In this document: in pieces, positions 31,637-57,553 of the stretch
Layout: the number at the start of each line of letters is the position of its first letter
Position numbering within the stretch: the stretch's first letter is position 1
NCBI GenBank assembly: GCA_965206505.1
Contig: CBDBJW010000005.1
Location: 567,596-631,595, forward strand
DNA: 64,000 bases
Reading direction: 5' to 3'
Origin: Longimicrobiales bacterium
GTDB lineage: Bacteria; Gemmatimonadota; Gemmatimonadetes; Longimicrobiales; Gaopeijiaceae
Translations under genes and position numbers: made by a program
Notes under the pieces: model-generated
Told to the model about the DNA's origin: nothing
Seen by the model: only the letters and a program-made list of their open reading frames with translations
Databases searched by the model: none

Positions 31637-31666
31637 AGTTTCTAGATCTCGGTTCCGGGTCCTGTC

Positions 31667-33406: not shown

Positions 33407-33411
33407 CAACT

Positions 33412-34574: not shown

Positions 34575-34576
34575 CG

Positions 34577-34930: not shown

Positions 34931-34936
34931 GGGAGT

Positions 34937-36106: not shown

Positions 36107-38664
<2,558 letters not shown>

Positions 38665-39082: not shown

Positions 39083-39175
39083 GCACTCGGGTGTCCGCCT
39101 GACGGACGCCTGTGTGTTCTGCCAATATGGCAGTGAAGGCATGTCAGGAATGAAATTTGCCGAAATGGCAGGAGT

Positions 39176-39211
39176 GGGCTCCGTAGCCGAATGGTTACGG
39201 AGCCTCTTTTT
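39176..39211 (+). terminator. rho-independent terminator
   Basis: GGCTCCGTA-gccgaatggt-TACGGAGCC (9-bp stem) followed by TCTTTTTTG. Confidence 0.6.
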
Positions 39212-39251
39212 TGGGGGTTGTGATCGATGCTTCCAACCCCCACGTCCTGTT

Positions 39252-39590: not shown

Positions 39591-39824
39591 GACAAAGGAA
39601 GCCGAGGTGAAGGAGGCTGGAAATGGACCGCTTCATATTCAGAGTTCCTTTAGAGGGCATGAGCTTCGGGTCATGTCATGGCCGGTGTTGGGCAGGCTGT
39701 GATTCCCCTTGCCCCCCCGATCACTCTCGGGCACGTTACGGCTCCCTTATTCCGCCTCCGCGGAGAGGGTGAAATACATCCGCCAACGGCCGGAGACGGT
39801 CGCGAACGATTTTTCAGGCCTTAT

Positions 39825-40061
39825 ATGTCCGAGCGTATTATAGAGGGTCTCCGAATCCATATCGACCGAGACCTGTGTGTCAGCTTCGGGGACTGCATCG
39901 AGGCGGCACCAGTCGTCTTCGAGTTCGACGACGAGGAGATCGCGGTCTTTGTGGGTGAGGCAGGTAAAATCACTCGGAAAGAATTGATCGCCGCTTGCGC
40001 TTCTTGCCCCGTGGACGCACTGACCGCATTCGATGAAAAGGGGGGGCAACTCGCCCCTTGA
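39825..40061 (+). CDS. small single-cluster ferredoxin
   Basis: IHIDRDLCVSFGDCIEAAPVVFEFDDE ... CASCPVDAL is a C-x5-C...C-P pattern. Confidence 0.7.
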   Translation: MSERIIEGLRIHIDRDLCVSFGDCIEAAPVVFEFDDEEIAVFVGEAGKITRKELIAACASCPVDALTAFDEKGGQLAP

Positions 40062-40119
40062 CGGGTCGCCCCAGAAAGCGCCGACGTGATTCTTGGGCGT
40101 CTGGAAAAAGACTGATCCC

Positions 40120-41043
40120 ATGCGAAAGATTCGAACCTATCAAGACGTTACCCACGACACCGGCTCGGGCCTGCTCGAGCAGGTCGTGGACCAGCAACAC
40201 AGCCTTGCCGACCGTCTCGCTCAAGTTCGGTCCGTCGTGGCGGTCGCTAGTGGCAAGGGCGGTGTCGGCAAGAGCGCAATCACGGCCAACCTGGCGGCTG
40301 CTCTCGCGGCGAGAGGGCTCTCCGTGGGCGCCGTCGACGCGGACCTCAACGGACCGTCGCTGGGCCGCATGTTGGGCGTGTCCGGAGCCCGGCTGGCCGA
40401 TCTGCCAAGCGGAGTGGAGCCGGCCCAGAGCCCGTCGGGGGTACGGGTGATGTCCATGGAGTTGCTCCAGGAGGAGGAGGACGCTCCCCTTCGCTGGCGA
40501 GAGCCCGAAATGGGGGGGTTCATTTGGCAAAGCACGCTCGAAACGGGGGTCCTCCGGGAGTTCCTCGGGGACGTGGAGTGGGGAGACCTGGACGTACTCT
40601 TGGTCGACGTACCGCCCGGGACGGACAAGATCAGACGGCTCTTGGAGCTTGTCCCAGACGTCGATCAGATGCTCATGGTCACGACCCCGTCGGAGACGTC
40701 TCGGTTCGTGGTGTCCAAGTCCGTTCGTATGGCCCGTGAGGCCGCCGTTGGAACAGTCGCGCTGGTCGCGAACATGGTCGAGCACACGTGTCCAGAATGC
40801 GGCCACGTGTCCCAGCTCTTCACGGGTGACGGCGCCAAGCGCCTCGAAGAGGAATCCGGCATACCCGTCTGGGCCGAGATCCCCTTCGATCCACGGCTCG
40901 GCGCTGCCACTGACTCGGGCACGCCGCTCGTGGTCACCGACCCCGATGCCCACTCATGCCGGGCGATTCTCGCACTGGCCGACCGGGTCGAAGAACTCGT
41001 CGGGATCCGGGGCGAGGACGCGGTCGAAGGGGTGGGCCCATGA
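40120..41043 (+). CDS. Mrp/NBP35 (ApbC) family Fe-S cluster carrier P-loop ATPase
   Basis: VAVASGKGGVGKSAITANLAAALA, VDADLNGPS, LLVDVPPGTD, CPECGH. The start could alternatively be 40093. Confidence 0.85.
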   Translation: MRKIRTYQDVTHDTGSGLLEQVVDQQHSLADRLAQVRSVVAVASGKGGVGKSAITANLAAALAARGLSVGAVDADLNGPSLGRMLGVSGARLADLPSGVEPAQSPSGVRVMSMELLQEEEDAPLRWREPEMGGFIWQSTLETGVLREFLGDVEWGDLDVLLVDVPPGTDKIRRLLELVPDVDQMLMVTTPSETSRFVVSKSVRMAREAAVGTVALVANMVEHTCPECGHVSQLFTGDGAKRLEEESGIPVWAEIPFDPRLGAATDSGTPLVVTDPDAHSCRAILALADRVEELVGIRGEDAVEGVGP

Positions 41044-41561
41044 AGTTCCTCTGCTTGGACTGCGACAAAGTTATGGAGTTCGCCGAGCGCCAGATTCCTG
41101 GAGACGGAACGCTCGCTGCGGTATTCAAGTGCGGATCGTGCGAGAGGGAAATGGCGATGCTCACAAACCCGATGGAGACGCAACTGGTCTCCAGCATGGG
41201 CGTGAAGATCGGTGGACGCGAGGTCCCCACCCAGCCCATGGAGCTGGCCCGCACGAAACTCGAGGGCGGCCGCGACGATGCGTTCGTTTTGTCGGAGGAT
41301 ATTCCGCTCGCCTCGGGCGAGTCAGCGCTCGCCTCGGACGACCCGGCGGTTCGAGGTGAGGGCCCGGGCGCCGGCGAGGCCCCCGCGGGACCCGTTGTGT
41401 GGACGTCGGAGGCCACCGGACGCCTCGAGCGAGTCCCCAGCTTCGTCCGGGGTATGGTGAAGCGGATTTACACCGATTGGGCACGCGAGAAGGGCGTTTC
41501 GGAGATCACGCCCGAAAACATGGACCGGGCTCGCTCGGAGTTGGGCCTGGAAGGTATGTAG
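41040..41561 (+). CDS. zinc-ribbon + PCP_red (BchB C-terminal-like) domain protein
   Basis: N-terminus CLDC...CGSC. C-terminus VVWTSEATGRLERVPSFVRGMVKRIYTDWAREKGVSEITPENMDRA resembles the C-terminal domain of protochlorophyllide reductase subunit B. ATGA coupling to mrp. Confidence 0.7.
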   Translation: MKFLCLDCDKVMEFAERQIPGDGTLAAVFKCGSCEREMAMLTNPMETQLVSSMGVKIGGREVPTQPMELARTKLEGGRDDAFVLSEDIPLASGESALASDDPAVRGEGPGAGEAPAGPVVWTSEATGRLERVPSFVRGMVKRIYTDWAREKGVSEITPENMDRARSELGLEGM

Positions 41562-41563
41562 GC

Positions 41564-42556
41564 TTGTTCGGAGCCACGGAGCTTTCCTTCACCTATCCCT
41601 CGGGCCGCAAGGGCCTGGGAAAGGTCTCCCTCAAAGCGGCCCCCGGGGATCGAGTCGTTGTCATGGGCCCGAACGGATCCGGAAAGAGCACGCTGCTTCG
41701 CCTCGTCTCCACCGAGCTCCCCTCCAGCCCAGGAACGCTCGAGCTTTTCGGCGAGGCGTGCGGACCCTCCAGACGAGACTTTCGCAAGAGGAGAGACCTT
41801 CGCAAGAGGATCGGCATCGTGCAGGATACGCCGGTTCACGTGGAAGATCTCACAGGGATGGAGAACGGGCTCCTGTTCGCGGAGCTCTACGGGTTGCCCG
41901 GAGCCGAGGCTTTGGGGGCCTTTGCAGGCCTATTCACGTCACTCGGCCTGGATGATGCGCTCCACGTTCCCACGAGGGAGTACTCGTACGGAATGAAGAA
42001 GAAGCTTCTCATCGCCGAGGCTTTGGTTCACGACCCCGACATGCTCATAATGGACGAGCCCGCGCTCGGCCTGGATCCACCTTCGCGGGCAGCTCTCCTT
42101 CGAATACTGGAGGAGCGCTCGGGGAAGGGTGTGTGCACGCTCGCGGCCACCAACGAACCCGCGCTGGCCCAAGAGCTGGCTACAACGGTCGTCCTTCTCC
42201 ACGAAGGGGAGGTCGTCGCGCACGGCAGCCCAGCCGAGCTTTTGGCCAAGGTCGGCAGCGCCACACGAATCGAACTGTACGTCGCCGGCTCTCCGCCGGC
42301 CGGCCCCATAATGACTGACCCGGCCTTCACGGGGCTCCCGGGGGACATCGTGTCGATCCAAGGACTGCCCGGGCGGATCATCGCCGAGAGCAGATCGGGC
42401 TCCGATGTTCTGCCGGAATTGGTCGGCGCGGTCCTCGCGGCGGGGCTGAAGATCGAGCGGATCGAGATACGTGAACCCGACCTCACGGACGTGTTCATGC
42501 TCTTCACCGGCCAGGCCTTGGGCCCAGCTCGCCTCACTTCTTCAACAGGCCTCTAG
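41564..42556 (+). CDS. ABC transporter ATP-binding protein (ABC-2 exporter type)
   Basis: GPNGSGKSTLLRL, YSYGMKKKLLIAEAL (signature-like), LIMDEPALGLD. TTG start chosen at 41564 after GGAAGG. Confidence 0.8.
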   Translation: MFGATELSFTYPSGRKGLGKVSLKAAPGDRVVVMGPNGSGKSTLLRLVSTELPSSPGTLELFGEACGPSRRDFRKRRDLRKRIGIVQDTPVHVEDLTGMENGLLFAELYGLPGAEALGAFAGLFTSLGLDDALHVPTREYSYGMKKKLLIAEALVHDPDMLIMDEPALGLDPPSRAALLRILEERSGKGVCTLAATNEPALAQELATTVVLLHEGEVVAHGSPAELLAKVGSATRIELYVAGSPPAGPIMTDPAFTGLPGDIVSIQGLPGRIIAESRSGSDVLPELVGAVLAAGLKIERIEIREPDLTDVFMLFTGQALGPARLTSSTGL

Positions 42557-42563
42557 AGAACCC

Positions 42564-43335
42564 GTGACACTCCCCGTGTGGAGAACGGAGTGGCTCACTG
42601 CCCTGCGGCGCCGACGCCTCCTGGTGCTCAACACGCTGATCCCCCTGGCGTTCGTGGCGCCCATCGCCCTCAGTTCAGCCCCGGCGGTACACTCCGCGGC
42701 CGCCTTCACTGTGCTCTTCGCGCTCTTCGGCACGTTCGGGTCGAGCATCCCACTGATCCGTGACGGTGAATCCGGGCTCCTCCGGCGTTATGTGCTCACG
42801 GGAGTCCACCCTGGTGGCCTCCTCCTTCAGCGCGTACTCGCCACTGTGCTCTTCGCGCTCTTCGGCAACGCGGTGAATCCGGGCTCCTGCACTCGACTTG
42901 ATCGACGCTGCACTCGACTTGATCGAACTGGCGTCGGTGCTGGTTATCGTTGTAGCTGGGGGGAGCTCGACCGCTCAATTGGCCATGGTCGTGCCGGCGC
43001 TGGTACTTGGGCTGGTCGCAGCGAACGCATTAGGCGCGCTCACCGCCGCCCTGGCAAAATCAGTCGCCGAGGGAGCGCTCTTCTCGGCAGTAGCCGCCCT
43101 CCTGCTTCTGCATTGGGCGGGGACGTTTCGTACTCCTGTTCCCGGAACCTGGCAAGCCACTCTGGAGACGTGGAATCCGTTCCGCCCGCTCCATGAAAGC
43201 TTGCTCGCGGCGGCAGGCGCCGGCGGGCCCGACTTGGACCCTGTGCTATTCACAACTCCCATCGGAGTCACGCTGGCCGTGTTGCTCCTGATTACTGCCG
43301 CCGGCCGTTATACGATAGGGCTCGGTGGCCGCTGA
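42564..43335 (+). pseudogene. ABC-2-type permease disrupted by a 70-nt mosaic insertion
   Basis: Frame A (GTG 42564: VTLPVWRTEWLTALRRRRLLVLNTLIPLAF...) and frame B (...ALDLIELASVLVIVVAGG... to 43335) are both hydrophobic. Deleting 42842-42911 joins them in frame as ...LLLQRVLALDLIELASV... Confidence 0.6.
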
Positions 43336-43340
43336 GATCC

Positions 43341-43371
43341 GACTCCGAGCCGCTGAGCGGCTCCGCGGCCG
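43341..43371 (+). repeat. possible third, diverged copy of the hairpin part of the dispersed repeat
   Basis: GACTCCGAGCCGCTGAGCGGCTCCGCGGCCG versus GACTCCGGCCGCTATGCGGCTACGGGCCG. The stem is GAGCCGC-TGA-GCGGCTC. It lies directly after a stop codon, like copies A and B. Confidence 0.35.
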
Positions 43372-43479
43372 GCTTGAAATCGGGATCCGTCCCCCATCTG
43401 GTCGGCCGAGCAGCGCGCCCCCGCTGGCCTCGAAACCGGGGCCGGGCGCCACACGCCAACGAGCCTGCTCCCCGGCTTG

Positions 43480-43509
43480 TTGACAGGCCTGAGAAGGGTC
43501 GGGTATACT
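43480..43509 (+). promoter_or_regulatory. sigma-70-type promoter candidate (TTGACA-N18-TATACT)
   Basis: Perfect -35 hexamer at 43480-43485 and TATACT at 43504-43509, in the 511-bp gap preceding the respiratory operon. It would give a leader of roughly 330 nt. Confidence 0.5.
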
Positions 43510-43846
43510 CACTTTCTACAACATGCACCATTTGGAACAAGCGCCCCTTGGGTAGGGCGCCGAGGACCGTGCCTTCATCGATCCGAACACTTCGCCTCCG
43601 AGGTCGAGACCTCTCGCTTAGAGGTAAGCGATCTGGGAGATCAGGACTCCGGTCGTGCTTCGTAGGGCCCTCGCTTGCTGCGGATTACCGGTAGCCCTAT
43701 CTGTGTAAGGAAATTTTGACAACGGCTGCGCACCTCTAGAGCGAATCAGATCGTACTCGATGCCCTTCCGACTTCGAAAACGGGGGCGTTTGTGCGATCG
43801 GTATGTGAAGGGTGCCAGATAACCCGGGCCGACGCCCCAGGTGATT

Positions 43847-46060
43847 ATGTACCGTGAAGTTTTCGTACCCATCGATAACTCGGACAACTCCCACTGGGCC
43901 GTCGACCGTGCCATCGAACTCTGTAAGCGCTCCGAGGGGCGGATCACAGGCAACCATGTCTACGCGGCGCGCCTTCACGATGTGCGATTTCGCCAATTGG
44001 AAACCGGACTTCCTGCCCAATTCCAATCCGCGAAGGAAATCAAGCGGCAGCGGAAGGTACACGACAAGCTGATCGAGAAGGGCCTCCAGCTCATATCGGA
44101 TTCCTTTCTCGATCAGACGGCAATCAGTTGTGAGGCGGCGGGTGTACCGCTGACCCGGCAGCTCCTCGAGGGCATCAACTATGAGGAGGTCTCTCGGGAG
44201 GCCAACCGAGGCGCCGGCCGCCTTCCCAGCCTGATCGGCTTCGACCCGAACATAGCGGACAAGTATGACGGGGGTGAGACGGTCCGTAGCGACGTCATCG
44301 TGGACGAGGACGGACGGATCATCGCAGAAGACGAGGAGCAGGATGAGAAGCTCGCCGGCTCGAGTGGTCGCGACTACGACCTCCTTGCCATCGGGGCGCA
44401 TGGGATCGGAAAACAACCGTATTCACAGTTGGGTGGAATGGTGTCGCGGGTCATCCGCCAGGTCGAAAAGGACACCCTGATCGTCAGGAACGATCGCGCG
44501 CTAGAGGGCGGTGACTGGATCGTGTGTGTCGACGGTTCCTCTTACTCGTACAAGGCCATGCGGCATGCCTTGGAGATGGCCAAGGAGTTCGGGGCGAAGC
44601 TTCATGTGTGCTCGGCCTTCGACGTGGAATACCACCACGCCGTGTTCGGGAACATCAAGGACATTCTCTCCGTGCAGGCCTCGAAGGTCTTCAAGTTCGA
44701 GGAGCAGGAAGAGCTCCACAACAACATCATCGACAAGGGTCTTCTGAAGTTGGCGCAGGCCAACCTCAAGCGGGCTGAGGTGATGACAGAGGAGTTCCCC
44801 GACGTCGAAGTCGAGACCCAGATCCTCATCGGTAAACCCTTCCAATGTATCCTCCAGTGGGTCGAGGAGATCGACCCGAGCCTTGTGATCCTCGCCCGCC
44901 ACGGCGGGCACCGGATCGAGGGTACGGACATGGGATCTCAGGCGGACAACCTGTGCCGCCTCTCGCCCACGAACATCCTGCTCATCGGCACCACCAACGT
45001 TCGCCCGGACGACATTCCCTGGATCGAAGAGGACGGGGAGACTGGGCTCGAGTGGGCGCCAGATGCCGAAGTCCGAATTCTTCGGGTGCCCCCGTTCGCA
45101 CTCGGGATCGCGCGCAAGGCCGTTGAAGAATTCGTGCTCGACAACTACGGCCCCGGGGCCAACGGCACGTACCGGGAAGAGGCGATCGTACAGGCGGCCG
45201 TGAACGGCGCCTCCACCAACGGTGCCTCGACCAACAACGTCGCCTCGAACATCGGCGCCTCGAGCAACGGCGCCCCGGCCAACGGGGAAGGGGCCAACGG
45301 CGAAAGAACGCCCCTCACCGAAGCCGAAGACGCCGCCGATGGCTCGCTTCCCGGTGCTTCGGTGCCCCCGCTCGGTGCAGGCGGTCTTCCGATGGTGACG
45401 GGCCCTCGCTTGGACGAGGCCATTACGAAGCTGCTTCCGACCCACATGCAGTTGATCATGGGCATCGGAACGGCCGAAGAGCTTGCCCTCGCCGAGGTGA
45501 AGGCCGAGGACGCGATGAAACGGACTTTGGTCAACGGCCTGGATGCCGACCCCCAGCCGGACGTCCCCATGATCTCCGCCACCTGCCCTTACAGCGGTCA
45601 TCCGCTCATGCGTGAACGGACGGCGGACGACCCGGTCGAGTGGACCCAGGAGGCCTTCGAGCGACTGAAGCTGGTGCCGTTGATCGCGAGGCCGCTGGCC
45701 CGCAACACGGTGGAGAGATTCGCCCGTGAGAACGAATTCTGGAGAGTTACCACACCGGTCATGGATGAAAACAAGCAGGCCATGATCGAGGCCGACGAAT
45801 TCGACATGGACACGATGTTGGTCATGTTCCGTGAACTTCAGACCAAGCAGATCAAGGCGGCGGCCGAGGGCATCGACGGCATGACCCCCGAGATGCGCAA
45901 GTTCATCGAAGAGGCCAAAGCCAGCGGCGTGACCCGCTGCCCGATTCGGGACGTGGCCGAGGCCACTGAGAACTGCCCGGTGGACATCAAGACCGTCTCG
46001 CCAGAGGACGCGAAGGCCGCGATCGAGAAATTCATGAGCAAGGAACCCAGCGAAGCGTGA
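43847..46060 (+). CDS. tandem universal-stress-protein (USP) domains + two PCP_red-like modules + Cys-containing C-terminal domain
   Basis: USP 1 (VFVPIDNSDNSHWAVDRAIEL...LLAIGAHG...GGMVSRVIRQ). USP 2 (WIVCVDGSSYSYKAMRHALEMA...LVILARHG...GSQADNLCR). PCP_red-like LEWAPDAEVRILRVPPFALGIARKAVEEF and VEWTQEAFERLKLVPLIARPLARNTVERFAREN. Asn/Gly/Ala/Ser-rich linker at about 45190-45310. Confidence 0.75.
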   Translation: MYREVFVPIDNSDNSHWAVDRAIELCKRSEGRITGNHVYAARLHDVRFRQLETGLPAQFQSAKEIKRQRKVHDKLIEKGLQLISDSFLDQTAISCEAAGVPLTRQLLEGINYEEVSREANRGAGRLPSLIGFDPNIADKYDGGETVRSDVIVDEDGRIIAEDEEQDEKLAGSSGRDYDLLAIGAHGIGKQPYSQLGGMVSRVIRQVEKDTLIVRNDRALEGGDWIVCVDGSSYSYKAMRHALEMAKEFGAKLHVCSAFDVEYHHAVFGNIKDILSVQASKVFKFEEQEELHNNIIDKGLLKLAQANLKRAEVMTEEFPDVEVETQILIGKPFQCILQWVEEIDPSLVILARHGGHRIEGTDMGSQADNLCRLSPTNILLIGTTNVRPDDIPWIEEDGETGLEWAPDAEVRILRVPPFALGIARKAVEEFVLDNYGPGANGTYREEAIVQAAVNGASTNGASTNNVASNIGASSNGAPANGEGANGERTPLTEAEDAADGSLPGASVPPLGAGGLPMVTGPRLDEAITKLLPTHMQLIMGIGTAEELALAEVKAEDAMKRTLVNGLDADPQPDVPMISATCPYSGHPLMRERTADDPVEWTQEAFERLKLVPLIARPLARNTVERFARENEFWRVTTPVMDENKQAMIEADEFDMDTMLVMFRELQTKQIKAAAEGIDGMTPEMRKFIEEAKASGVTRCPIRDVAEATENCPVDIKTVSPEDAKAAIEKFMSKEPSEA

Positions 46061-47487
46061 GCAGCGCAGCAGATCTCAGGTCCATGTCCTCTGCAACTCT
46101 GGCACCTCCCGCTCCGGAAGGGCTCGAGACGGTCGCGCCAAGCCGGGAGCGGGGTCCGTACACTCCGCATATCGTTGCGTGGAACCTCACGAAGCGATGT
46201 AACCTGGCGTGTGCGCACTGTTATATCTCGGCGGGTTCCTGGCATGTGGCCGACGATGAGCTCTCCACGGATCAATGCTTGCGCATCCTGGATGAGATTC
46301 TCGACGTGAACCCCAACCCCATGTTGATCCTTACTGGGGGAGAGCCCCTCCTTCGAGACGACCTGGAGGCCCTGGCAAAGCAAGCTTCTGCGGGGGGCGC
46401 CACGGTTGTGGTGGGAACCAACGGGACGCGCCTTAGCGGCGAGCGTATCGACTCCCTGTTGGAAGCCGGCGTTAAGGGTGTCGCGGTGAGTATCGACTCG
46501 CTGCGTCCCGAGTATCATGATCGGTTTCGGCACGGCGGGGGCGCACTCACGGACACGATGGCTGCGGTCGAGCGTTGCTCGGCTCGAAAGCTCGATTTTG
46601 TTATTCAGACGACCGTCACGTCCGGTAATCGGCACGAAATTGCAGATTTGGCTCGCTGGTCGGCCGAGGCGGGAGCCGTTTCCTTCAACGTCTACTTCGT
46701 GGTCCCGACCGGGCGCGCAGAACATATGCAGGGCATGAGTCCCGAAGAGAACGACGAAGTCCTTCGTGAGCTCGTCGAGCTGGAGGGGACCTATCGCGGC
46801 CGCATGATGGTCCGCTCGAAGTGCCAACCACAGATCATGAGGCACGTGGTCGGGGGTGATCCGGAGTCTCCCCTGCTGAACTATGAGACTCGCTGTCCCT
46901 GTGGTGTCCACTACGTGCGTATCACGCCTGAGGGCAAGGTCACGCCATGTCCTTATATGCCCGTGGTCGCGGGGGACCTGTTGACGCAGAGTTTTCAGGA
47001 AATCTGGGAGTCGTCGCCCGTCTTCACCAAGCTCAGAACAGGCGAGCTGGGCGGACGGTGCGGACGGTGCGAGTACCGCGAAGTGTGCGGAGGATGCCGC
47101 GCCCGCGCCTATGCCGACAACGGCGATTTTATGGGTCCGGATGATTCCTGCGCCTACGAGCCGTCCGGAGAGACACCCCTCATTGCGTCTCGCCGGCCGG
47201 TCTCCTACGGGCAATCAGTCCCAGATGGGCAGTCGGGCGCCGACCGCGGCGCCTCCATCGAGCAAACCCCATCGGTCGCCCTCGAGTGGACCCCGGAAGC
47301 GCTCGCCCGCATGGACAAAGTACCAAGCTTCGTTCGGGGAGTGGTCATACAAAGGGTCGAGAAGTTCGCCAATGACCGAGGCTACACATGCGTGGATGTG
47401 GAAGTCATGGAGGAGGTTCGTCGGAACCTCCCCGTGGATTTCTCCAAGAAACTTCCGTTCTTCTTGGGAAGAGGGGGAAGGGCATGA
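46057..47487 (+). CDS. radical SAM / SPASM enzyme of the NirJ/AhbC/AhbD (tetrapyrrole-modifying) type with a C-terminal PCP_red module
   Basis: CNLACAHCY cluster motif, LILTGGEPLL, VGTNGT, SIDS, QTTVT, VPTGR. SPASM end GGRCGRCEYREVCGGCRARAYADNGDFMGPDDSCAY. C-terminus LEWTPEALARMDKVPSFVRGVVIQRVEKFANDRGY. Confidence 0.8.
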   Translation: MSSAADLRSMSSATLAPPAPEGLETVAPSRERGPYTPHIVAWNLTKRCNLACAHCYISAGSWHVADDELSTDQCLRILDEILDVNPNPMLILTGGEPLLRDDLEALAKQASAGGATVVVGTNGTRLSGERIDSLLEAGVKGVAVSIDSLRPEYHDRFRHGGGALTDTMAAVERCSARKLDFVIQTTVTSGNRHEIADLARWSAEAGAVSFNVYFVVPTGRAEHMQGMSPEENDEVLRELVELEGTYRGRMMVRSKCQPQIMRHVVGGDPESPLLNYETRCPCGVHYVRITPEGKVTPCPYMPVVAGDLLTQSFQEIWESSPVFTKLRTGELGGRCGRCEYREVCGGCRARAYADNGDFMGPDDSCAYEPSGETPLIASRRPVSYGQSVPDGQSGADRGASIEQTPSVALEWTPEALARMDKVPSFVRGVVIQRVEKFANDRGYTCVDVEVMEEVRRNLPVDFSKKLPFFLGRGGRA

Positions 47488-50695: not shown

Positions 50696-50713
50696 GGGGA
50701 GGCGAGACTAGCG

Positions 50714-51514
50714 ATGGGCAAGTACTTCAAGCATCCCTTGGGCCAGGCTGGCCTGGTCCTAGTGGCCTCTTACTTTCTGTTGGAGTACGGGATCGCGTAC
50801 CTCCCGCCTTTGGTCGGCATCGCAAGCGCTCCGGTCCCGAATTCGGTGGTGTTCCAGTTTCTCGTTACCGTGGGCGTGGGGGTCCTCCTCTGGGTCAGCG
50901 ACAACGAAGCCCGTTGGACGGAGTTCAAGGAGCCGATCCACCGCGTGATGGTGGACCCGGACCAGAAGCTGGCTCGGAGCTCGCTGATGGTGCTGGTGCC
51001 GATCCTCGTAGCATTCGCGACGTTCAGTCAGGTAAGACCTTCTGTGGCAGCGCCTTCGAGCCTACGCTCGATTCACCCGTCGGCTCCGAGCCAGTTCGAG
51101 TTTCAGGGATCGATGGTGGAGCTCACCAGCTTGGAGAACCCCCTGCGCTCGAGTGGCTCCTTGGAGGAGCACTATGAAGAAGGGAAGCGCGTCTACTATG
51201 AGAACTGTCTGGCCTGTCATGGTGACGGCCTCGACGGCCGGGGGCATTACGCGCATGGATTCAATCCTGCCCCCCTGAGCTTCCAGGACGTCGGCACCAT
51301 CGCGCAGCTCGTCGAAGCCTTTGTTTTCTGGCGTATCGCGAAGGGGGGACCCGGGCTTCCCAACGAGGGGGGCCCGTGGAACTCGGCCATGCCGGCATGG
51401 GAGGACTTCCTGACTGAAGACGAGATCTGGTCCGTGATCATCTTCTTGTATGAGCAGTCCGGTCATGAACCGCGCACGTTCGAAGAGGAAGGCGGAGAGG
51501 GGGAGGCGGAATGA
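50714..51514 (+). CDS. membrane-anchored monohaem cytochrome c
   Basis: Three N-terminal hydrophobic helices, then YYENCLACHGDGLDG ... MPAW is a class I cytochrome c pattern. Confidence 0.75.
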   Translation: MGKYFKHPLGQAGLVLVASYFLLEYGIAYLPPLVGIASAPVPNSVVFQFLVTVGVGVLLWVSDNEARWTEFKEPIHRVMVDPDQKLARSSLMVLVPILVAFATFSQVRPSVAAPSSLRSIHPSAPSQFEFQGSMVELTSLENPLRSSGSLEEHYEEGKRVYYENCLACHGDGLDGRGHYAHGFNPAPLSFQDVGTIAQLVEAFVFWRIAKGGPGLPNEGGPWNSAMPAWEDFLTEDEIWSVIIFLYEQSGHEPRTFEEEGGEGEAE

Positions 51515-53139
51515 CGGCCGCGATGGGCACGATGAGTGGGCAAGCAGCCGGTATCGCCAGGCAGATGGCCTTGATCGTCCTCCTCTCGGCGGCATCGGCA
51601 CTAGTTGGGGATGGCCTGAGCGCTCAGGACGGGGACGATCTCGGCCAGATCACCTATGACCGTTGGTGTGCCGGCTGCCACGGTGTGGACGGGACGGGCA
51701 ACGGCCCCGCCTCCGGCTACATGCTTCCCCGGCCACGGGACTTCACCGAGGCGCTGTACCAGATTCGGACGACGGCCAGCGGCGAGCTCCCAACGGATGA
51801 GGACATTCGGGCCATAATCGACCGGGGGATGCCGGGTACGACGATGCCGGGCTGGGAGGATCTTCTTTCAAACGACGAGATAGAGGCGCTGGTCGAGTAT
51901 CTCAAGTCGTTTTCCCGGTTCTTCACTCCCGATGCGGTCCCGCAGCCTTTCGACTTCGGTGGCGCCCCGCGGGTCAATGCCGACGTGCTCGCTGAAGGTG
52001 AGGGGCTGTTCCGGGAAGTAGCGGATTGCGCGGCGTGCCATGGGGACGGGGGCCGAGGCGACGGAGAGTCTTCACCGACGCAGGTCGATGACGGGGACTT
52101 TCCGATTCGCGTGGCCGACCTGACCGAGAACTGGCTGTTCAACGGCGGCGGAGAGGTCGAGGACATCTACCGTCGACTGCTGACGGGCCTGGACGGCACG
52201 CCCATGCCGAGCTTGGCCGACGTCGTCACCGCGGGCGTCCTCACCTACGAACAGGTCTGGGCCGTTGCACACTACGTTCGCAGCCTTGCACCCGACGACC
52301 CGCCGGGAATCACCGAGGTTGTCCGGGGTGTTCTCTTCGAGGACGTTCCGCTTCCGTCGTCGGTCGACGACGAAGCGTGGGATGACATCGAGGCCGCCTA
52401 CCTACCGCTCGTCGGACAAATCATCGTGATGCCGCGCTGGTTCGACCCCCGGGTGGACGGTGTCTGGGTGCAGGCCGCGCATGACGGAGAATCCGTGGCA
52501 GTTCGTGTCACCTGGAGCGATCCCAACAGCAGCCCCGATCCTTTGTGGGCCGACTGGAAGTCCTTGGTGATTTCGCTCATGCAGCCGAAGGAGGGAGACC
52601 CCCAGGACGAGGGGCCGACGCCCGATCAACTCGTGGTCCAGTTCCCGATGGAGATGCCGGAGGGCATGGAGCGGCCGTTCTTCCTGAAGGGGGACAACCG
52701 CCGTCCGGTGTATCTGTGGCAGTGGCAGAGTGACCGCGTTAGCGCCCTGGAAGGCGAGGCCGGCGGCGTCGGGACCGAGGCCTTCCAATCGGAGGGGCAA
52801 AACCTTACCGTAGACGCCTCGCATGCGGACGGCCAATGGCAGGTCATGTTCACGAGGCCGCTCGTCACGGACAACGAAGGCGACCTCGATTTCGTGACCG
52901 GTGAGGCCATTCCGATGGCCTTGTTCGCCTGGGATGGAGACAACGGGGAATCCGGCACCAGGGGCGCGGTCAGTTCCTGGTACTTCATGTTCCTCGAGGA
53001 CGCCACTCCCGCCACTGTGTATGTGGCCCCCGCTTTGGCTATGATGTTGACGGCCGCGTTTGGATTCTTGGTGGTAGCCCGCGCCCAGAAGAGGGAGCGG
53101 GAGGGTGGTGAAGTAGAAAGCAAGACACCGTATAGTTGA
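51511..53139 (+). CDS. dihaem cytochrome c fused to an EB_dh-like (ethylbenzene dehydrogenase gamma / DOMON-like haem-binding) domain, C-terminal TM anchor
   Basis: CAGCHGVDGTGNG and CAACHGDGGRGDG. Then VQFPMEMPEGMERPFFLKGDNRRPVYLWQW...LFAWDGDNGESGTRGAVSSWYFMFLE. C-terminal helix VAPALAMMLTAAFGFLVVA. Confidence 0.65.
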   Translation: MTAAMGTMSGQAAGIARQMALIVLLSAASALVGDGLSAQDGDDLGQITYDRWCAGCHGVDGTGNGPASGYMLPRPRDFTEALYQIRTTASGELPTDEDIRAIIDRGMPGTTMPGWEDLLSNDEIEALVEYLKSFSRFFTPDAVPQPFDFGGAPRVNADVLAEGEGLFREVADCAACHGDGGRGDGESSPTQVDDGDFPIRVADLTENWLFNGGGEVEDIYRRLLTGLDGTPMPSLADVVTAGVLTYEQVWAVAHYVRSLAPDDPPGITEVVRGVLFEDVPLPSSVDDEAWDDIEAAYLPLVGQIIVMPRWFDPRVDGVWVQAAHDGESVAVRVTWSDPNSSPDPLWADWKSLVISLMQPKEGDPQDEGPTPDQLVVQFPMEMPEGMERPFFLKGDNRRPVYLWQWQSDRVSALEGEAGGVGTEAFQSEGQNLTVDASHADGQWQVMFTRPLVTDNEGDLDFVTGEAIPMALFAWDGDNGESGTRGAVSSWYFMFLEDATPATVYVAPALAMMLTAAFGFLVVARAQKREREGGEVESKTPYS

Positions 53140-53164
53140 ATCATCTTATCATATCGGAGGCATA

Positions 53165-53944
53165 ATGTCGGATCGATTTGAAATGGGCGGAGTCGTCGCG
53201 CCCATACTCATGCTGCTGGTTATGGCCGGCTGCGGAGGTGGAGACGGAGGTGACGGTGGCGGTGGCGCCGGAGGTGGTGCGGCCGTGGAAAACCCGGTCG
53301 ATGCGGCCACGGCCGGCAACATCGCGGGATCCGTCGTTTTCGAGGGCGCCGTGCCCAGCATGGACGACATCGACATGAGCAGCGAGTCCGCGTGTGCGGC
53401 CAAGCACGCCTCCACGCCGATGGTCCAGGAAGTCGTCGTCAACAGCAATGGTACTCTGGCCAACGTGTTCGTCTACGTGCAGGAAGGGCTGGAGAGCCTC
53501 CAGTTCCCGACACCCGAAGCGGTACTGCTGAACCAGGACGGATGTGTCTACCTCCCGCACGTTTTGGGCGTGATGGCGGGTCAAGACATCACGATCAGGA
53601 ACAGCGACGGGCTGTTGCACAACATCAACGCATCGCCCGACATCAACCGCGGCTTCAACAGCAGCCAGCCCGTCAATATGGAGACCACGCGCAGCTTCGC
53701 GACGGCCGAGGTCATGGTTCCTCTGCGCTGCGACGTCCACGGTTGGATGAACGCTTATGTCGGCGTCCTCGATCACCCGTATCACTCCGTGTCGAACAGC
53801 AGTGGCGCCTTCAACCTGTCGACGCTGCCTCCGGGCGATTACGTGATCGAGGCGTGGCACGAGCGTTACGGAACGCAGACCCAGAACGTGACCGTGACCA
53901 CGGGTCAGACCGCCGAAGTCACGTTCACCTTCAGTGCATCCTAA
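53165..53944 (+). CDS. lipoprotein with cupredoxin-like type-1 copper site and a carboxypeptidase-regulatory-like beta-sandwich
   Basis: Lipobox LVMAGCGG with a Gly-rich tether. Candidate ligands are His in LLHNINASP and C-x2-H-x2-M in LRCDVHGWM (amicyanin-like spacing). C-terminus GAFNLSTLPPGDYVIEAWHERYG. Confidence 0.6.
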   Translation: MSDRFEMGGVVAPILMLLVMAGCGGGDGGDGGGGAGGGAAVENPVDAATAGNIAGSVVFEGAVPSMDDIDMSSESACAAKHASTPMVQEVVVNSNGTLANVFVYVQEGLESLQFPTPEAVLLNQDGCVYLPHVLGVMAGQDITIRNSDGLLHNINASPDINRGFNSSQPVNMETTRSFATAEVMVPLRCDVHGWMNAYVGVLDHPYHSVSNSSGAFNLSTLPPGDYVIEAWHERYGTQTQNVTVTTGQTAEVTFTFSAS

Positions 53945-54042
53945 GTGGCTATGGCGTCGGCCGGTTCGGTCCCTGAACGGACCGGTGGGCGCCTCTCCAT
54001 TACAACTGTAAGACTCACACTCCAGCTCGGGAGACGAGTGGG

Positions 54043-54813
54043 ATGAATTTTTTCTGGCGTACGGGGATGGTGCTGGCCGGCATGCTTACCGTGGTCATTG
54101 TGTTGTGGGTCATAACCGGCCCCTCGTGGCTGGACCTTACCTGGGTGATGCCGGACAACGTCGTGTCGACGTACGGGCAGACTCTAGACGACCTGTGGCT
54201 CGTGATCCTTTGGATCACGGGTATCATCTTCTTCGCCACGGAGATCGTCTTGTTGGTCTTCATGGTGAAGTACCGCCACAGGGAAGGACGTAAAGCGGAG
54301 TACATCCACGGCAGCAACAAGGCCGAGGTTATATGGACGGCGATTCCCTTCGTCATCGTCATGGGTTTGGCCTTCTACTCGAAGGGCATCTGGGACGAGA
54401 TCCGTGATCCCAACCGCATCCCGGCCAACGCATATCCGATCAACATGCTAGCCACTCAGTTCGAGTGGAACGCCACCTATGCGGGCGCCGACGGAGACTT
54501 CGATACGTCGGACGATTTCGTCTCCCTAAACGTACTGCACATTCCGGTCGCTCAACCCGTTGTAGTCCGGTTGATGGCCCAGGACGTGATCCACTCGTTG
54601 TTTCTACCCGAGTTCCGGGTCAAGCAGGACGCGGTGCCCGGCATGATCACCCCGGTCTGGTTCGAGGCGACACAGACAGGTGAGTTTACCCTGGCCTGTG
54701 CCGAGCTCTGCGGGCTCGGGCACTATACGATGGGGGGGACGGTCATCGTCCATTCACAGGCTGATTTTCAAGATTGGCTCGCGGAGCAGCAAGCCGAAGC
54801 GGAGGATGACTGA
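54043..54813 (+). CDS. coxB: cytochrome c oxidase subunit II (CuA, no fused cytochrome c)
   Basis: Two N-terminal TM helices, DVIHSLFLPEF, and the CuA motif CAELCGLGHYTM. Confidence 0.9.
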   Translation: MNFFWRTGMVLAGMLTVVIVLWVITGPSWLDLTWVMPDNVVSTYGQTLDDLWLVILWITGIIFFATEIVLLVFMVKYRHREGRKAEYIHGSNKAEVIWTAIPFVIVMGLAFYSKGIWDEIRDPNRIPANAYPINMLATQFEWNATYAGADGDFDTSDDFVSLNVLHIPVAQPVVVRLMAQDVIHSLFLPEFRVKQDAVPGMITPVWFEATQTGEFTLACAELCGLGHYTMGGTVIVHSQADFQDWLAEQQAEAEDD

Positions 54814-56609
54814 TGAGCACGACCACGGCGACGGAAACACACGCCGGACCCGCTGAGCACCACGAGCTCGGCTTCATCCGGACCTACATTTTCTCTACCG
54901 ATCACAAGATGATCGCGAGACAGTTCCTCTTCAGCGCGCTGATGTTCCTTCTGCTGGGAGGACTGCTCGCGGTCATGGTTCGCTGGCAGCTCGGTTTCCC
55001 GGGACGACCCCTGCCCTCTTTCATACAGTGGATCTTTCCGGACACTATGGCCCCGGGAGGCATCATTTTACCGGAGTTCTACAATTCCCTGGTCACGATG
55101 CACGCCACCTTCATGGTGTTCTTCGCGCTCATGCCGCTCATGGCGGGGGTCTTCGGCAATCTCCTGATCCCCCTCCAGATCGGTGCGGAGGACATGGCGT
55201 TCCCCCGGATCAACATGGTGTCCTTCTGGATCATGCCGGTCGCGGGCGTAATCATGCTGGCGAGCTTCTTCGTCGAGGGAGGCGCCGCGGGAGCAGGCTG
55301 GACGTCTTACGCGCCGCTGAGCGCCTCGGGTGAGTGGACGGGCGTCTACATGGGCCAGATCCTCTGGCTGGTCTCTCTGATCGTCCTTGGATTCTCCTCG
55401 ATCCTGGGCGCTTTGAATTACGTATCGACCGTGATCAACATGCGGGCGCCGGGGATGACGTGGTTCCGGATCCCGCTGGGGACGTGGTCGCTGTTCATCA
55501 CCGCGTGGTTGCTTCTGTTGGCGATCCCGATTCTTACGGGCGGCCTGATTCTGCTCCTCTTCGATCAGACGATCGGAACAGCCTTCTTCCGCCCGGAGGG
55601 CAGCGGCGAGCCTCTCCTCTGGCAGCACATCTTCTGGTTCTTCGGTCACCCTGAAGTGTACATCCTGATTCTTCCCGCGATGGGCTTCGTCTCCGAGGTG
55701 ATCGCATGCCGGTCCCGGAAGCCGATCTTCGGCTACCACTCCATGGTGATCGCCTTGGTGTCCATCGCGTTCTTGTCATGGGTCGTCTGGGGCCACCACA
55801 TGTTCCAGAGCGGCATGAACCCGCTCCTCGGCATGACGTTCGTGGTGACGACCGTCGTGATCGCGGTCCCTTCGGCGATCAAGGTATTCAACTGGCTAGG
55901 AACGCTCTGGCGTGGGAACATCCACTTCGACGCGCCACTCCTGCACGCGGTCGCGTTCGTGTCGCTCTTCATCATCGGAGGGCTGTCGGGGATGTTCATG
56001 GCCGCGGCTCCCGTCGACATCTACATCCACGACACGTATTTCATCGTGGCTCACCTCCACTACGTCCTGGTGGGTGGAAGCCTCTTTGGAATTTTCGCGG
56101 GGATTATCTTTTGGTATCCCAAGATGTTCGGCCGGATGATGCACGAGGGATGGGGCAAGGTGCACTTCTTCCTCTCGTTCCTCTTCTACAACATGGCGTT
56201 CTTCCCGATGCACAACCTGGGTGTGCAGGGGATGATGCGCCGGATCTACGATCCCAACCAGTACGAGTTCCTACAGGGTCTTCAGCCCTTGAATACCTTC
56301 ATCTCGATCAGCGTATTCCTCTTCGCGACTACGCAGATCATTTTCGCGCTCAACTTCTTGTTGAGCCTGCGCTACGGTAAGGAAGCCGGCAACAACCCCT
56401 GGAAGTCCAGCACGCTGTTGTGGACCACTCCGTCTCCGCCGCCGCACGGCAACTTCCCGGTGATGCCCATCGTGTACCGTGGCCCATACGAGTACAGCCA
56501 TCCGGACACCGAAGAGGACTTCTGGCCTCAGGACGCTCCGCCTGCTACCAGCGGGATGGGCGGACAGCCGGCCGCATCCCCGACCCCCGAACCCGTTCCT
56601 GGAGACTGA
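54813..56609 (+). CDS. ctaD: cytochrome c oxidase subunit I (A-family haem-copper oxidase)
   Basis: DHKMIARQF, FFGHPEVYILILP, WGHHMF, HDTYFIVAHLHYVL. TGATG coupling to coxB. Confidence 0.95.
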   Translation: MSTTTATETHAGPAEHHELGFIRTYIFSTDHKMIARQFLFSALMFLLLGGLLAVMVRWQLGFPGRPLPSFIQWIFPDTMAPGGIILPEFYNSLVTMHATFMVFFALMPLMAGVFGNLLIPLQIGAEDMAFPRINMVSFWIMPVAGVIMLASFFVEGGAAGAGWTSYAPLSASGEWTGVYMGQILWLVSLIVLGFSSILGALNYVSTVINMRAPGMTWFRIPLGTWSLFITAWLLLLAIPILTGGLILLLFDQTIGTAFFRPEGSGEPLLWQHIFWFFGHPEVYILILPAMGFVSEVIACRSRKPIFGYHSMVIALVSIAFLSWVVWGHHMFQSGMNPLLGMTFVVTTVVIAVPSAIKVFNWLGTLWRGNIHFDAPLLHAVAFVSLFIIGGLSGMFMAAAPVDIYIHDTYFIVAHLHYVLVGGSLFGIFAGIIFWYPKMFGRMMHEGWGKVHFFLSFLFYNMAFFPMHNLGVQGMMRRIYDPNQYEFLQGLQPLNTFISISVFLFATTQIIFALNFLLSLRYGKEAGNNPWKSSTLLWTTPSPPPHGNFPVMPIVYRGPYEYSHPDTEEDFWPQDAPPATSGMGGQPAASPTPEPVPGD

Positions 56610-56612
56610 CGC

Positions 56613-57269
56613 ATGAGCGACGCTGCAGTTGCGACCATGGACCGCAAGCCCATGCCAGGGATGATGGTCTACAACAAGAAGTTGGGCATGTGGGTGTTCC
56701 TGCTCAGCGAGGTGATGTTCTTCACCTCGTTGATCGGATCCTACCTCATCCTACGCTTCGCCCACCCAGACCATTGGACCGATCCGGGTGTCATTCTGAA
56801 CGTTCCCCTGACGGCCTTGAACACGTTCCTCCTGATCTGTTCGTCCGTGACCATGGTCAAGGCCTTTGCGGCCATCCAGCAAGGGGACCAGCAGGGCCTC
56901 AAGCGGTGGCTTCTGGCCACGATTCTGATCGGGTCGACCTTCGTTGGCATCCAGGGCATCGAATACAGCGTGCTCTCGGGTGAGGGCTTCCTACCGGCGC
57001 AGGAGACCTACCACGCCGTGGGCCGTGGAAATCCTCACGAGGGTCCTTCCCTCGGCGGGCCGCTCTACGGGGCAACCTTCTACGCCATGACCGGCTTTCA
57101 CGGAGCGCATGTGTCGATCGGGGTTCTCTGTCTGATTTTCGTCTACATCATGGCGCTCCGCGGGGCATACACTGTCCAGGATTATGAGGGCGTGGAGATA
57201 ATCGGCCTTTACTGGCACTTCGTGGATCTCGTTTGGATCCTCCTGTTCACCATCGTCTACCTCATTTGA
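56613..57269 (+). CDS. ctaE: cytochrome c oxidase subunit III
   Basis: LGMWVFLLSEVMFF, TGFHGAHVSIGV, LYWHFVDLVWILLF. Confidence 0.9.
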   Translation: MSDAAVATMDRKPMPGMMVYNKKLGMWVFLLSEVMFFTSLIGSYLILRFAHPDHWTDPGVILNVPLTALNTFLLICSSVTMVKAFAAIQQGDQQGLKRWLLATILIGSTFVGIQGIEYSVLSGEGFLPAQETYHAVGRGNPHEGPSLGGPLYGATFYAMTGFHGAHVSIGVLCLIFVYIMALRGAYTVQDYEGVEIIGLYWHFVDLVWILLFTIVYLI

Positions 57270-57283
57270 AGGCGGGAGCAATC

Positions 57284-57553
57284 ATGGAAGAGCAAGAACA
57301 CGCGCACCCGCGCTATATGCTGATTTGGTTGATCCTCGCCGTGCTCACCGCGGCAGAGGTAGGATACGCCTTCCTGAGTCTTCCGAAGATCGTATTGGCG
57401 GTGGGACTGGTCATCATGGCGCTTTGGAAGGCTGCCTTGGTGGCGATGTATTACATGCATCTCAGGTATGAGCCGGCACGACTGTGGATTCTGGCGATCT
57501 CTCCACTTCCGTTGGCGGTCATCCTCGTATTGGCCGTCATCACCGAGTTCTAG
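57284..57553 (+). CDS. cytochrome c oxidase subunit IV (small prokaryotic type)
   Basis: HPRYMLIWLILAVLTAAEV...ALWKAALVAMYYMHL is the typical bacterial subunit IV / CoxD-like pattern. Its TAG stop (57551-57553) is part of the IS5 target duplication. Confidence 0.75.
   Translation: MEEQEHAHPRYMLIWLILAVLTAAEVGYAFLSLPKIVLAVGLVIMALWKAALVAMYYMHLRYEPARLWILAISPLPLAVILVLAVITEF

Follow-up and report, generated by a model that had tools for sequence, protein, structure and literature searches.

The DNA analysed here is a window of 64,000 nucleotides from a Longimicrobiales bacterium of the Gemmatimonadota (GenBank assembly GCA_965206505.1, contig CBDBJW010000005.1, positions 567,596 to 631,595); all positions below are those of the window. 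Between 39825 and 57553 its plus strand carries 17 co-directional open reading frames (ORFs), which amount to 16 genes, the ABC-2 permease gene being frameshifted. We hold with high confidence that they form a conserved Gemmatimonadota respiratory cluster, in which a cofactor-maturation unit is joined to a bd-like membrane complex of the OR-N2 subfamily and to an A-type (aa3-like) haem-copper oxidase. The cluster consists of the following features.

39825-40061 (start possibly 39678), plus strand: fdx, small single-cluster [4Fe-4S] ferredoxin (Pfam Fer4_13, 2e-10)
40093-41043, plus strand: Mrp/NBP35/ApbC-type Fe-S cluster carrier ATPase (Pfam ParA/NUBPL, 3.4e-69)
41040-41561, plus strand: Zn-ribbon-PCP_red protein (Pfam PCP_red, 6.8e-13; CxxC at residues 5 and 31)
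About 41558-42556, plus strand: ABC exporter ATPase (ABC_tran, 1.5e-24)
42553-43335, plus strand: ABC-2 permease, frameshifted (ABC2_membrane, 3e-4)
43336-43840, plus strand: intergenic gap of 505 bp, the sole large gap of the block and the probable start of a separate transcription unit
43841-46060, plus strand: USP-USP-PCP_red protein (Pfam Usp in two stretches, 2.3e-28; PCP_red at residues 601-645, 4.2e-13)
46057-47487, plus strand: radical SAM/SPASM-PCP_red protein, AhbD/NirJ-like (Radical_SAM, 1.3e-26; SPASM, 7.9e-10; PCP_red, 1.7e-16)
47484-49274, plus strand: CydA-like subunit, OR-N2 subfamily (Pfam Cyt_bd_oxida_I, PF01654, 1e-16)
49274-50695, plus strand: ActD domain (residues 1-170) with a dihaem cytochrome c anchored by a transmembrane (TM) helix (Pfam ActD, PF11821, 4.9e-42; CXXCH at 274 and 398)
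50714-51514, plus strand: membrane-anchored monohaem cytochrome c (Cytochrome_CBB3, 4.7e-09; CXXCH at 165)
51511-53139, plus strand: dihaem cytochrome c-EB_dh protein with a C-terminal TM anchor (EB_dh, 9.4e-20; Cytochrom_C, 7.3e-19; CXXCH at 53 and 173)
53165-53944, plus strand: cupredoxin-like and CarboxypepD_reg lipoprotein (lipobox MAGC; CarboxypepD_reg, 4.6e-11, the sole Pfam domain)
54043-54813, plus strand: coxB (COX2_TM/COX2; CuA motif CAELCGLGHYTM; 256 aa, no cytochrome c domain)
54813-56609, plus strand: ctaD (COX1, 2.5e-145)
56613-57269, plus strand: ctaE (COX3)
57233-57553, plus strand: cox4, subunit IV (COX4_pro)

The gene content and coordinates of the original prediction agreed with the ORF list and with Pfam, which confirmed nearly all of its domain calls. 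The six stop/start overlaps it had listed were all found when the junctions were read in the DNA (ATGA at 41040, GTGA at 46057, ATGA at 47484, TGATG at 49272-49276, ATGA at 51511 and TGATG at 54811-54815). Its three-block anatomy was recovered in the form of three units, divided by the 505-bp gap and by a second gap of 98 bp ahead of coxB. Yet with these two gaps the run is not continuously coupled. The best sigma-70-like match of a 19-kb scan, TTGACA-18-TATACT at 43480-43509 (11/12), lies within the larger gap; it is no more than a match to the consensus, and such matches were in total no more numerous in the scan than in shuffled sequences. Likewise, the scan for terminators showed no excess, with 15 found versus 12.7 expected from shuffles. 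Rfam gave no match within the cluster, its sole match being an IS3-type ALIL frameshift element upstream.

The assignment of the protein encoded at 47484-49274 as a CydA without Q-loop and without a CydB partner was supported by its Pfam match and by comparison with solved structures. A profile of its family matched 5DOQ_A with 2.2e-15 in the first ~200 residues only, and the alignment to solved CydA ends near residue 250. The AlphaFold (AF2) model, with a pLDDT of 68.6, shows a signal-like N-terminal helix followed by 13 long helices, of which those at 250-355 are predicted to stand where the Q-loop would be, in accord with the published description of the bd-like protein (PMC3578206). In a Foldseek search with this model the top ten matches were all CydA chains with a probability of 1.00, at a global TM-score of just 0.32-0.38. 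Neither CydB nor Rieske, cytochrome b, ActB or NrfD-like ActC/ActF proteins were detected among the 50 window ORFs scanned with Pfam, in line with the absence of complex III genes claimed before. Compared to canonical cytochrome bd (CydABX) the N-terminal helices with the equivalents of H19, E107, H126 and H186 are homologous to CydA. On the other hand, CydB, the Q-loop and the quinol-binding residues are missing, E99 is replaced by Tyr, the region of E445 cannot be aligned, and there are five extra helices as well as cytochrome c and copper partners. Identity as a canonical bd oxidase was rejected on these grounds, i.e. no CydB in the window, no Q-loop, Tyr at the E99 position and a C-terminal half that is unalignable.

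The residues H55, Y135, E142, Y149, Y151, H165 and H223 correspond with identical spacing to the OR-N2 row in Table S6 of Murali et al. The signature of OR-N2 comprises 14 helices, conserved equivalents of H19, H126 and H186, Tyr in place of E99, a conserved E107 and a Tyr-x-Tyr following it. H55 is equivalent to E. coli H19, the ligand of the haem on the O2 side, and E142 to E. coli E107, one glutamate of the proton channel. The protein is 46.6% identical to the OR-N2 protein of Nitrospira sp. Kam-Ns4a. More than 7,400 relatives are found in the databases; the best 120 share 74-96% identity, and those with a name belong to Gemmatimonadota/Longimicrobiales. Judged from these comparisons, the four-gene core of the CydA-like subunit and the three cytochromes c is a bd-like cluster of the Nitrospira NIDE0901 type and belongs to subfamily OR-N2 of the cytochrome bd superfamily. 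As a set of genes the core is not novel: it is orthologous to the NIDE0901 cluster, and operons of this type, with 'multiple cytochromes c and an ebdC homologue', were known before (Murali, Gennis & Hemp 2021).

The distribution of the cluster was examined with a locus scan that picked YDWMGY and LPFAGY as search patterns. These are the most conserved motifs of the CydA-like protein and lie in the stretch that replaces the Q-loop. The best 80 of at least 595 matching loci in species-representative genomes were analysed, and the counts given here describe the close family neighbourhood. At the species level 65 loci were from Gemmatimonadota, with CydA-like proteins of 68-88% identity; 40 of them had at least 8.5 kb of downstream sequence and 42 had enough flank upstream. 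The three cytochrome c genes, the cupredoxin gene, coxB, ctaD, ctaE and cox4 were present in 40/40 with constant order and strand. The arrangement is not due to chance, since all related Gemmatimonadota loci with sufficient flank contain the block as a whole. The cupredoxin and cox genes also follow the module, in the same order, in five loci of Rokubacteria/Methylomirabilota type. Several cytochromes c plus an EbdC homologue accompanied the CydA-like gene in all 50 loci with enough flank; one locus outside Gemmatimonadota had no match to the dihaem c-EB_dh protein. Wherever the contig suffices, the four-gene core was found outside the phylum as well, in NC10/Methylomirabilota, Rokubacteria, Myxococcota, Rhodothermaceae and Thermoanaerobaculia (L081); a second Thermoanaerobaculia contig (L085) ends inside the EB_dh gene, and the sole Chloroflexi locus (L077) ends just past the dihaem c gene. 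Hence the neighbourhood comparison suggested with the original prediction showed a block kept as a unit with cox in Gemmatimonadota and a core that also occurs without cox elsewhere. The flanks examined in Rokubacteria and Rhodothermaceae are of unrelated, housekeeping character, with ClpB, DnaJ, HtrA and FtsH in the former and a TonB receptor and a histidine kinase in the latter, and no further conserved partner emerged. In the upstream flanks scanned, those of L079 and L080, nothing resembling NrfD, Rieske or cytochrome b was detected. A Myxococcota metagenome-assembled genome (L072, 3400-15507) contains two complete divergent modules back to back on opposite strands, each with the CydA-like protein, three cytochromes c and cupredoxin; no cox genes lie within 10 kb of either copy.

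In Nitrospira sp. Kam-Ns4a (L087) the OR-N2 gene is followed by those for the dihaem c, the monohaem c (36.7% identity) and the dihaem c-EB_dh protein (30.8%), while the genes for an OR-N1 paralogue and a small PCP_red protein lie a few kb upstream and that for a cupredoxin-protein homologue ~10 kb upstream. Similarity to the NIDE0901 cluster thus extends from the 14-helix CydA-like protein without Q-loop, with its residue signature and 46.6% identity, to the order of the next three genes and to the cupredoxin-like and PCP_red/'zinc finger' proteins nearby. The window differs by the absence of an OR-N1 partner gene and of NXR, by the fixed position of the module beside cupredoxin and coxBACD, by the radical SAM-PCP_red, USP-PCP_red, Mrp and ferredoxin set that precedes the module, and by the ActD domain that the dihaem c bears in this lineage. 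In addition, the host is presumably a heterotrophic member of Gemmatimonadota and not a nitrite oxidiser.

The five CXXCH motifs originally claimed are present, split 2+1+2 over the three cytochrome c proteins. In three homologues of the CydA-like protein (P0122, P0125 and P0137; 45-55% identity) one or two cytochrome c domains are fused to the C-terminus, which points to a close partnership between the dihaem c and the CydA-like subunit. The monohaem c was found in every locus that is long enough, that of Nitrospira included, at 32-82% identity. The ActD domain at the N-terminus of the dihaem c is genuine; it matched the ActD chains of four solved structures of alternative complex III (ACIII), namely 6LOD_D (1.1e-19), 8K9E_D, 6F0K_D and 6BTM_D. 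The domain is, however, limited to L001, L002, L007 and L069, i.e. 2/40 Gemmatimonadota loci and two near-identical metagenome loci, and absent from the loci of other phyla. Elsewhere the orthologue is a plain dihaem c of ~268 aa without ActD. Since ActD occurs in the closest relatives only, a 'chimeric ACIII' architecture is not a property of the system. Thus the ActD assignment of the original prediction stood, and the chimera built on it, with the CydA-like protein in place of the NrfD-type subunits, did not. The sequences identify the ActD domain as a late, lineage-specific N-terminal addition to the dihaem c, where it would probably serve as a membrane or scaffold element.

Membership in ACIII was rejected because the defining subunits are absent and ActD is not conserved. 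The cluster resembles the combination of ACIII (ActABCDEF) with caa3 oxidase in Rhodothermus, Flavobacterium and Roseiflexus in that a multihaem membrane module is followed by a haem-copper oxidase, in having an authentic ActD domain and in a possible role as quinol:cytochrome c oxidoreductase. Six periplasmic haem sites in ACIII compare with five c haems and one possible b haem here. In contrast to ACIII there is no ActB, no NrfD-like ActC/ActF and no pentahaem ActA, and ActD is found in just 2/40 orthologous clusters. Furthermore, the membrane core is a bd-type haem protein, whereas the NrfD-type subunits of ACIII are without cofactor. The module may therefore work like ACIII, though it is not a member.

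The EB_dh domain (PF09459) of the second dihaem cytochrome scored 72 bits against a cut-off of 33.3, and its nearest solved structures are Kuenenia NxrC (7B04_C) and EbdC (2IVF_C). At the positions of the haem b ligands of EbdC/NxrC (EB_dh residues ~390-500) the window protein has Lys and Arg, not Met and Lys, so that binding of haem b by this domain is not assured. The first ligand position is Lys in the window and in L003, Met in most orthologues and Trp in Nitrospira; ligation of haem b in the EB_dh domain thus seems to vary among lineages.

Both NxrC and EbdC partner periplasmic molybdoenzymes, and homologous genes lie within the NXR cluster in nitrite oxidisers and anammox bacteria (PMC3578206). 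The module might accordingly be a hub that collects or distributes electrons for a periplasmic redox enzyme encoded elsewhere and docks via the EbdC/NxrC-like domain in the way of NxrC and NxrAB, or a reductase of another acceptor or a detoxifying enzyme, with aa3 as one partner; its occurrence without cox in several phyla (L071, L072, L080, L086) is in agreement with this. We consider such a role improbable. The ligand positions are not conserved, no gene for a molybdoenzyme or other periplasmic dehydrogenase was found in the window or in the flanks examined, and in Gemmatimonadota cox is the constant partner.

The lipoprotein that follows has C37, C87, H112, C149, H152 and M155 invariant in 16 orthologues of several phyla, with the amicyanin-like spacing C-x2-H-x2-M. 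Its profile matched a blue copper protein (5FC9, 1.5e-4) and plastocyanin and amicyanin (0.01-0.02), matches which are weak, and it reached 16.4 bits with Pfam Copper-bind, below the cut-off of 21.2. A type-1-copper cupredoxin is a reasonable, not a proven, designation based on these residues. The gene stays with the module where cox is lacking, as in L072 (twice), L086 and Nitrospira L087.

The genes upstream of the CydA-like gene had been predicted to be a maturation set, and they do look like tetrapyrrole and Fe-S functions tied to the CydA-like module. The radical SAM protein possesses the CX3CX2C motif and a SPASM domain, and its gene overlaps those of the USP protein (GTGA) and of the CydA-like protein (ATGA). 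Its best NCBIfam matches are full length, NirJ2 with 285 bits and AhbD haem b synthase with 273 bits, both of which act on tetrapyrrole side chains. As these scores are below the equivalog cut-offs of 500, the protein is a paralogue with an extra PCP_red domain and not an equivalog. It shares with AhbD, NirJ and AhbC the full-length similarity, the CX3CX2C motif and the SPASM auxiliary-cluster domain. It differs from them by the C-terminal PCP_red and by scores under every equivalog cut-off, and its gene is translationally coupled to that of a respiratory membrane protein instead of being located in an operon for haem or haem d1. A homologue search with it returned only close Gemmatimonadota relatives of at least 63% identity. 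The fusion of radical SAM and PCP_red is kept in NC10, Rhodothermaceae, Thermoanaerobaculia and Nannocystaceae.

PCP_red corresponds to the extreme C-terminus of BchB by family comparison, and this element of BchB shields the protochlorophyllide cavity of DPOR (PMC4071322). From its presence in three proteins of the cluster we infer that the PCP_red domains handle a tetrapyrrole, by analogy with BchB. The USP protein contains a second PCP_red-like stretch near residue 410, seen by eye and unscored; its orthologues in L080 and L086 have two PCP_red matches each. The Mrp protein scored 212 bits with NCBIfam MrpORP, less than the cut-off of 450. In Nitrospira sp. Kam-Ns4a (L087, 2049-6284) a DUF420 protein, a small protein with two PCP_red-like repeats and an unannotated membrane protein of 361 aa precede the OR-N1 gene. 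DUF420 is the CtaM family, which is linked to the maturation of haem-copper oxidases. PCP_red proteins may thus accompany OR-N enzymes in general as accessory factors.

Next to these genes the cluster encodes an ABC exporter, the permease of which matches the intact protein of L003 in two frames. The junction is a 21-bp x1.9 perfect tandem repeat at 42887-42926, and the permease is also intact in the relatives L007 and L069; the split is either a recent pseudogene or an indel of the long-read assembly. Because the ABC genes are present in just 13/42 Gemmatimonadota loci, the exporter is optional. In L001 and L002, close relatives of the window, an IS5-type transposase gene (4459-5402) lies between the ABC genes and the USP gene.

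The genes for ferredoxin, Mrp, Zn-ribbon-PCP_red, USP-PCP_red and radical SAM proteins were all present in 42/42 Gemmatimonadota loci. The position of the ferredoxin gene is variable; in the 43 loci with fdx, mrp and Zn-PCP_red it was the first gene in 13 and followed Zn-PCP_red in 30. Outside the phylum the USP-PCP_red gene adjoins the module in L071, L076, L080, L081 and L086, the Zn-ribbon-PCP_red gene in L071, L076, L080 and L081, and the Mrp gene is co-located with it in NC10, Rhodothermaceae and Thermoanaerobaculia. The radical SAM-PCP_red, USP-PCP_red, Mrp and Zn-PCP_red genes are found upstream in another order in L071 and L076 and downstream in L080, L081 and L086. None of these five loci has a cox operon alongside; the only cox gene is a single coxB homologue, on the reverse strand, where L081 ends. 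More than any other observation, such reshuffled yet persistent linkage without cox indicates that it is the CydA-like module, rather than the haem-copper oxidase, which the accessory genes serve.

In a further explanation the three blocks would be mere neighbours, with the radical SAM enzyme as the housekeeping O2-independent coproheme decarboxylase AhbD and the upstream genes devoted to the general supply of haem and Fe-S clusters. Annotation pipelines do label the orthologues 'heme b synthase' or 'AdoMet-dependent heme synthase', the 505-bp gap with its promoter-like site sets the first block apart, and Rokubacteria-type loci lack the upstream genes nearby. Against that stand the AhbD and NirJ2 scores far under their cut-offs, the company that the four accessory genes keep with the CydA-like module in five phyla in varied order and independently of cox, the overlaps that couple translation of the USP, radical SAM and CydA-like proteins, and the PCP_red protein kept beside the OR-N1 gene in Nitrospira. 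We regard this explanation as very improbable.

The cluster ends with coxB, ctaD, ctaE and the subunit IV gene, as predicted, and Pfam confirmed that CoxB is without a cytochrome c domain of its own. In 40/40 Gemmatimonadota loci, as well as in L078, L079, L082, L083 and L084, the coxBACD genes come directly 3' of the module. Without a cytochrome c domain CoxB needs an external donor, and the cluster offers five c haems and the cupredoxin. We propose that the bd-like complex and the aa3 oxidase would operate as one chain. The CydA-like protein, the only polytopic redox subunit of the bd-like module, would draw electrons from menaquinol in the membrane. These would move over its b haems to the c haems on the periplasmic side and to the cupredoxin, and from there to CuA of CoxB. 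The module would thus fill the job of complex III, comparable to the gene clusters for ACIII-caa3 and bc-aa3. Mrp and ferredoxin would provide clusters and electrons to the radical SAM enzyme, whose task would be to modify a haem for the CydA-like subunit or to deliver it, and the PCP_red domains would hold the tetrapyrrole.

We adopt this menaquinol:cytochrome c/cupredoxin link feeding aa3 tentatively, as a plausible reading that we would not call probable. In its favour, two phyla show an invariant linkage to cupredoxin and cox, and conservation is extreme in the part of the protein that stands in place of the Q-loop (YDWMGY, LPFAGY). It also agrees with the genomic background. Among 326 Gemmatimonadota genomes petB was detected in 23%, ACIII in <10%, coxA in 81.6%, cydA in 53% and cydB in 29%, and the authors of that survey suggested that novel complex III modules are possible in the phylum (PMC9426454). 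Oxygen reductase genes are often located downstream of ACIII genes (PMC12342949). A role like that of ACIII was raised earlier for the bd-like protein of Nitrospina, Nitrospira and Kuenenia (Luecker et al. 2013, PMC3578206), the last of which is a strict anaerobe that carries a bd-like homologue (PMC3578206).

Several points weigh against the proposed link. No known quinol-binding element is present in the CydA-like protein, as the Q-loop and its residues are missing; a new quinol site in this protein is conjecture. H55, E142 and H165 are conserved, which fits a proton-consuming reduction at a high-spin haem, i.e. an oxidase, and a cytoplasmic proton path to a haem near the outer face would suit a reductase better than a site of quinol oxidation. 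The sister subfamilies OR-N1 and OR-N5 adjoin pet or ACIII genes as a terminal oxidase would, and most Nitrospira are without haem-copper oxidases, the OR-N2 protein being the favoured candidate for the terminal oxidase there. The ACIII count for Gemmatimonadota is based on KEGG and possibly too low by the authors' own account (PMC9426454). Finally, Rokubacteria-type loci with cox lack the accessory genes within 10 kb, and the 80 loci, being the best matches, are skewed to close relatives.

In the rival reading, which is how the OR-N family is seen in the literature, the bd-like module would be a second, cytochrome-c-fed terminal oxidase that forms a branched terminal segment with aa3 and shares its carriers. 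Electrons would flow from the cytochrome c pool or cupredoxin via the three cytochromes c to haem b of the CydA-like protein and on to O2 at the H55-ligated haem. Protons would be taken up from the cytoplasm with charge separation of the bd type, and the accessory genes would make or insert the active-site haem. The equivalents of H19, E107, H126, H186 and W441 are conserved in OR-N2, the first four being seen here, and the core of the CydA fold is retained. Murali et al. (2021) place the reduction of O2 in the first four helices, which are conserved, and regard cytochrome c as the likely electron donor to OR-N2, and the cytochrome c domains fused to the C-terminus of some homologues resemble electron-entry domains of oxidases. 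The radical SAM enzyme and the USP domains would, as general knowledge suggests, fit a function at low oxygen. Yet OR-N2 has Tyr and Ser/Ala at the positions of the active-site Glu E99 and the haem ligand E445 of E. coli. It would be unusual for two terminal oxidases to stay together in one tight co-directional cluster throughout 40/40 genomes and in another phylum as well, and the occurrence of the family in the strict anaerobe Kuenenia does not favour O2 as the acceptor. In the literature experimental confirmation of O2 reduction is lacking for every OR-N enzyme, OR-N2 being catalogued only, and we found no biochemical study of a bd-like oxidase. A second oxidase is possible, at less than an even chance.

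Both functions had been named as options in the original prediction. Gene context slightly favours the quinol:cytochrome c oxidoreductase, while residue conservation and family precedent favour the O2 reductase; our own preference leans slightly to the former. A more far-reaching version of the preferred link would make the module a third, independently evolved quinol:cytochrome c/cupredoxin oxidoreductase, a 'bd-type complex III', that forms a unit, conceivably a physical supercomplex, with aa3, explains why complex III appears to be missing from most Gemmatimonadota (and Rokubacteria) and needs a dedicated radical-SAM/PCP_red pathway for an undescribed modified haem. We consider this version as a whole unlikely.

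Insertion sequences lie on both sides of the cluster. Those upstream (36300-38664, minus strand) are an IS30-like gene (HTH_38/rve) and the IS3-type element with the ALIL frameshift pseudoknot at 38270-38386 (102 bits); the one downstream (57742-58725, minus strand) is an IS5/DDE_Tnp_1 transposase gene right after cox4. A strong terminator-like hairpin on the plus strand at 39176-39205, with 13 pairs followed by a T run, is located ~600 bp 5' of the ferredoxin gene and may be the end of a preceding plus-strand unit and hence the upstream limit of the cluster. The ~19 kb from the M42 peptidase gene to the ferredoxin gene (20445-39824) are missing from the relatives L003 and L004, in which M42, GAF, DUF481 and fdx follow in succession within ~1.6 kb. 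This extra DNA carries genes for a GlcDEF-like FAD/Fe-S oxidase (21116-25229), a succinate dehydrogenase/fumarate reductase set (31667-34930), a T2SSE ATPase and IS elements. An FGE-sulfatase-domain gene (16483-17493) is found 5' of LytB in the window, and two such genes lie between OR-N1 and OR-N2 in Nitrospira L087 (7396-9303); the link may be coincidental.

The core module family (OR-N2) and the idea of an ACIII-like role are already known. As far as the searchable literature goes, the fixed supercluster of OR-N2, cupredoxin and aa3 in Gemmatimonadota and Rokubacteria appears to be new, as do the association with the radical SAM/PCP_red/USP/Mrp set across phyla, the ActD fusion and the link to the 'missing complex III' of Gemmatimonadota. 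Our searches found no paper joining 'bd-like' and Gemmatimonadota, and none joining PCP_red and radical SAM.

OR-N bd-like enzymes are widespread, and the main terminal oxidase of the globally important nitrifiers Nitrospira and Nitrospina is assumed to be of this kind. The cluster places an OR-N2 module in aerobic, presumably heterotrophic Gemmatimonadota beside an ordinary aa3 oxidase and a particular set of genes for haem and Fe-S maturation. If the proposed link is true, the module would be the missing connection from menaquinol to the cytochrome c oxidase in a phylum in which bc1 and ACIII are mostly undetected. The cupredoxin may be an integral partner of the module. In addition, bd-like enzymes may require a specially made or delivered haem, for which the AhbD/NirJ-like radical SAM enzyme with PCP_red is a candidate; this lead bears on the way unusual haems reach bd-type sites. 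Even if the module were simply another oxidase, the cluster would point out which accessory genes are probably needed to express any OR-N enzyme heterologously.

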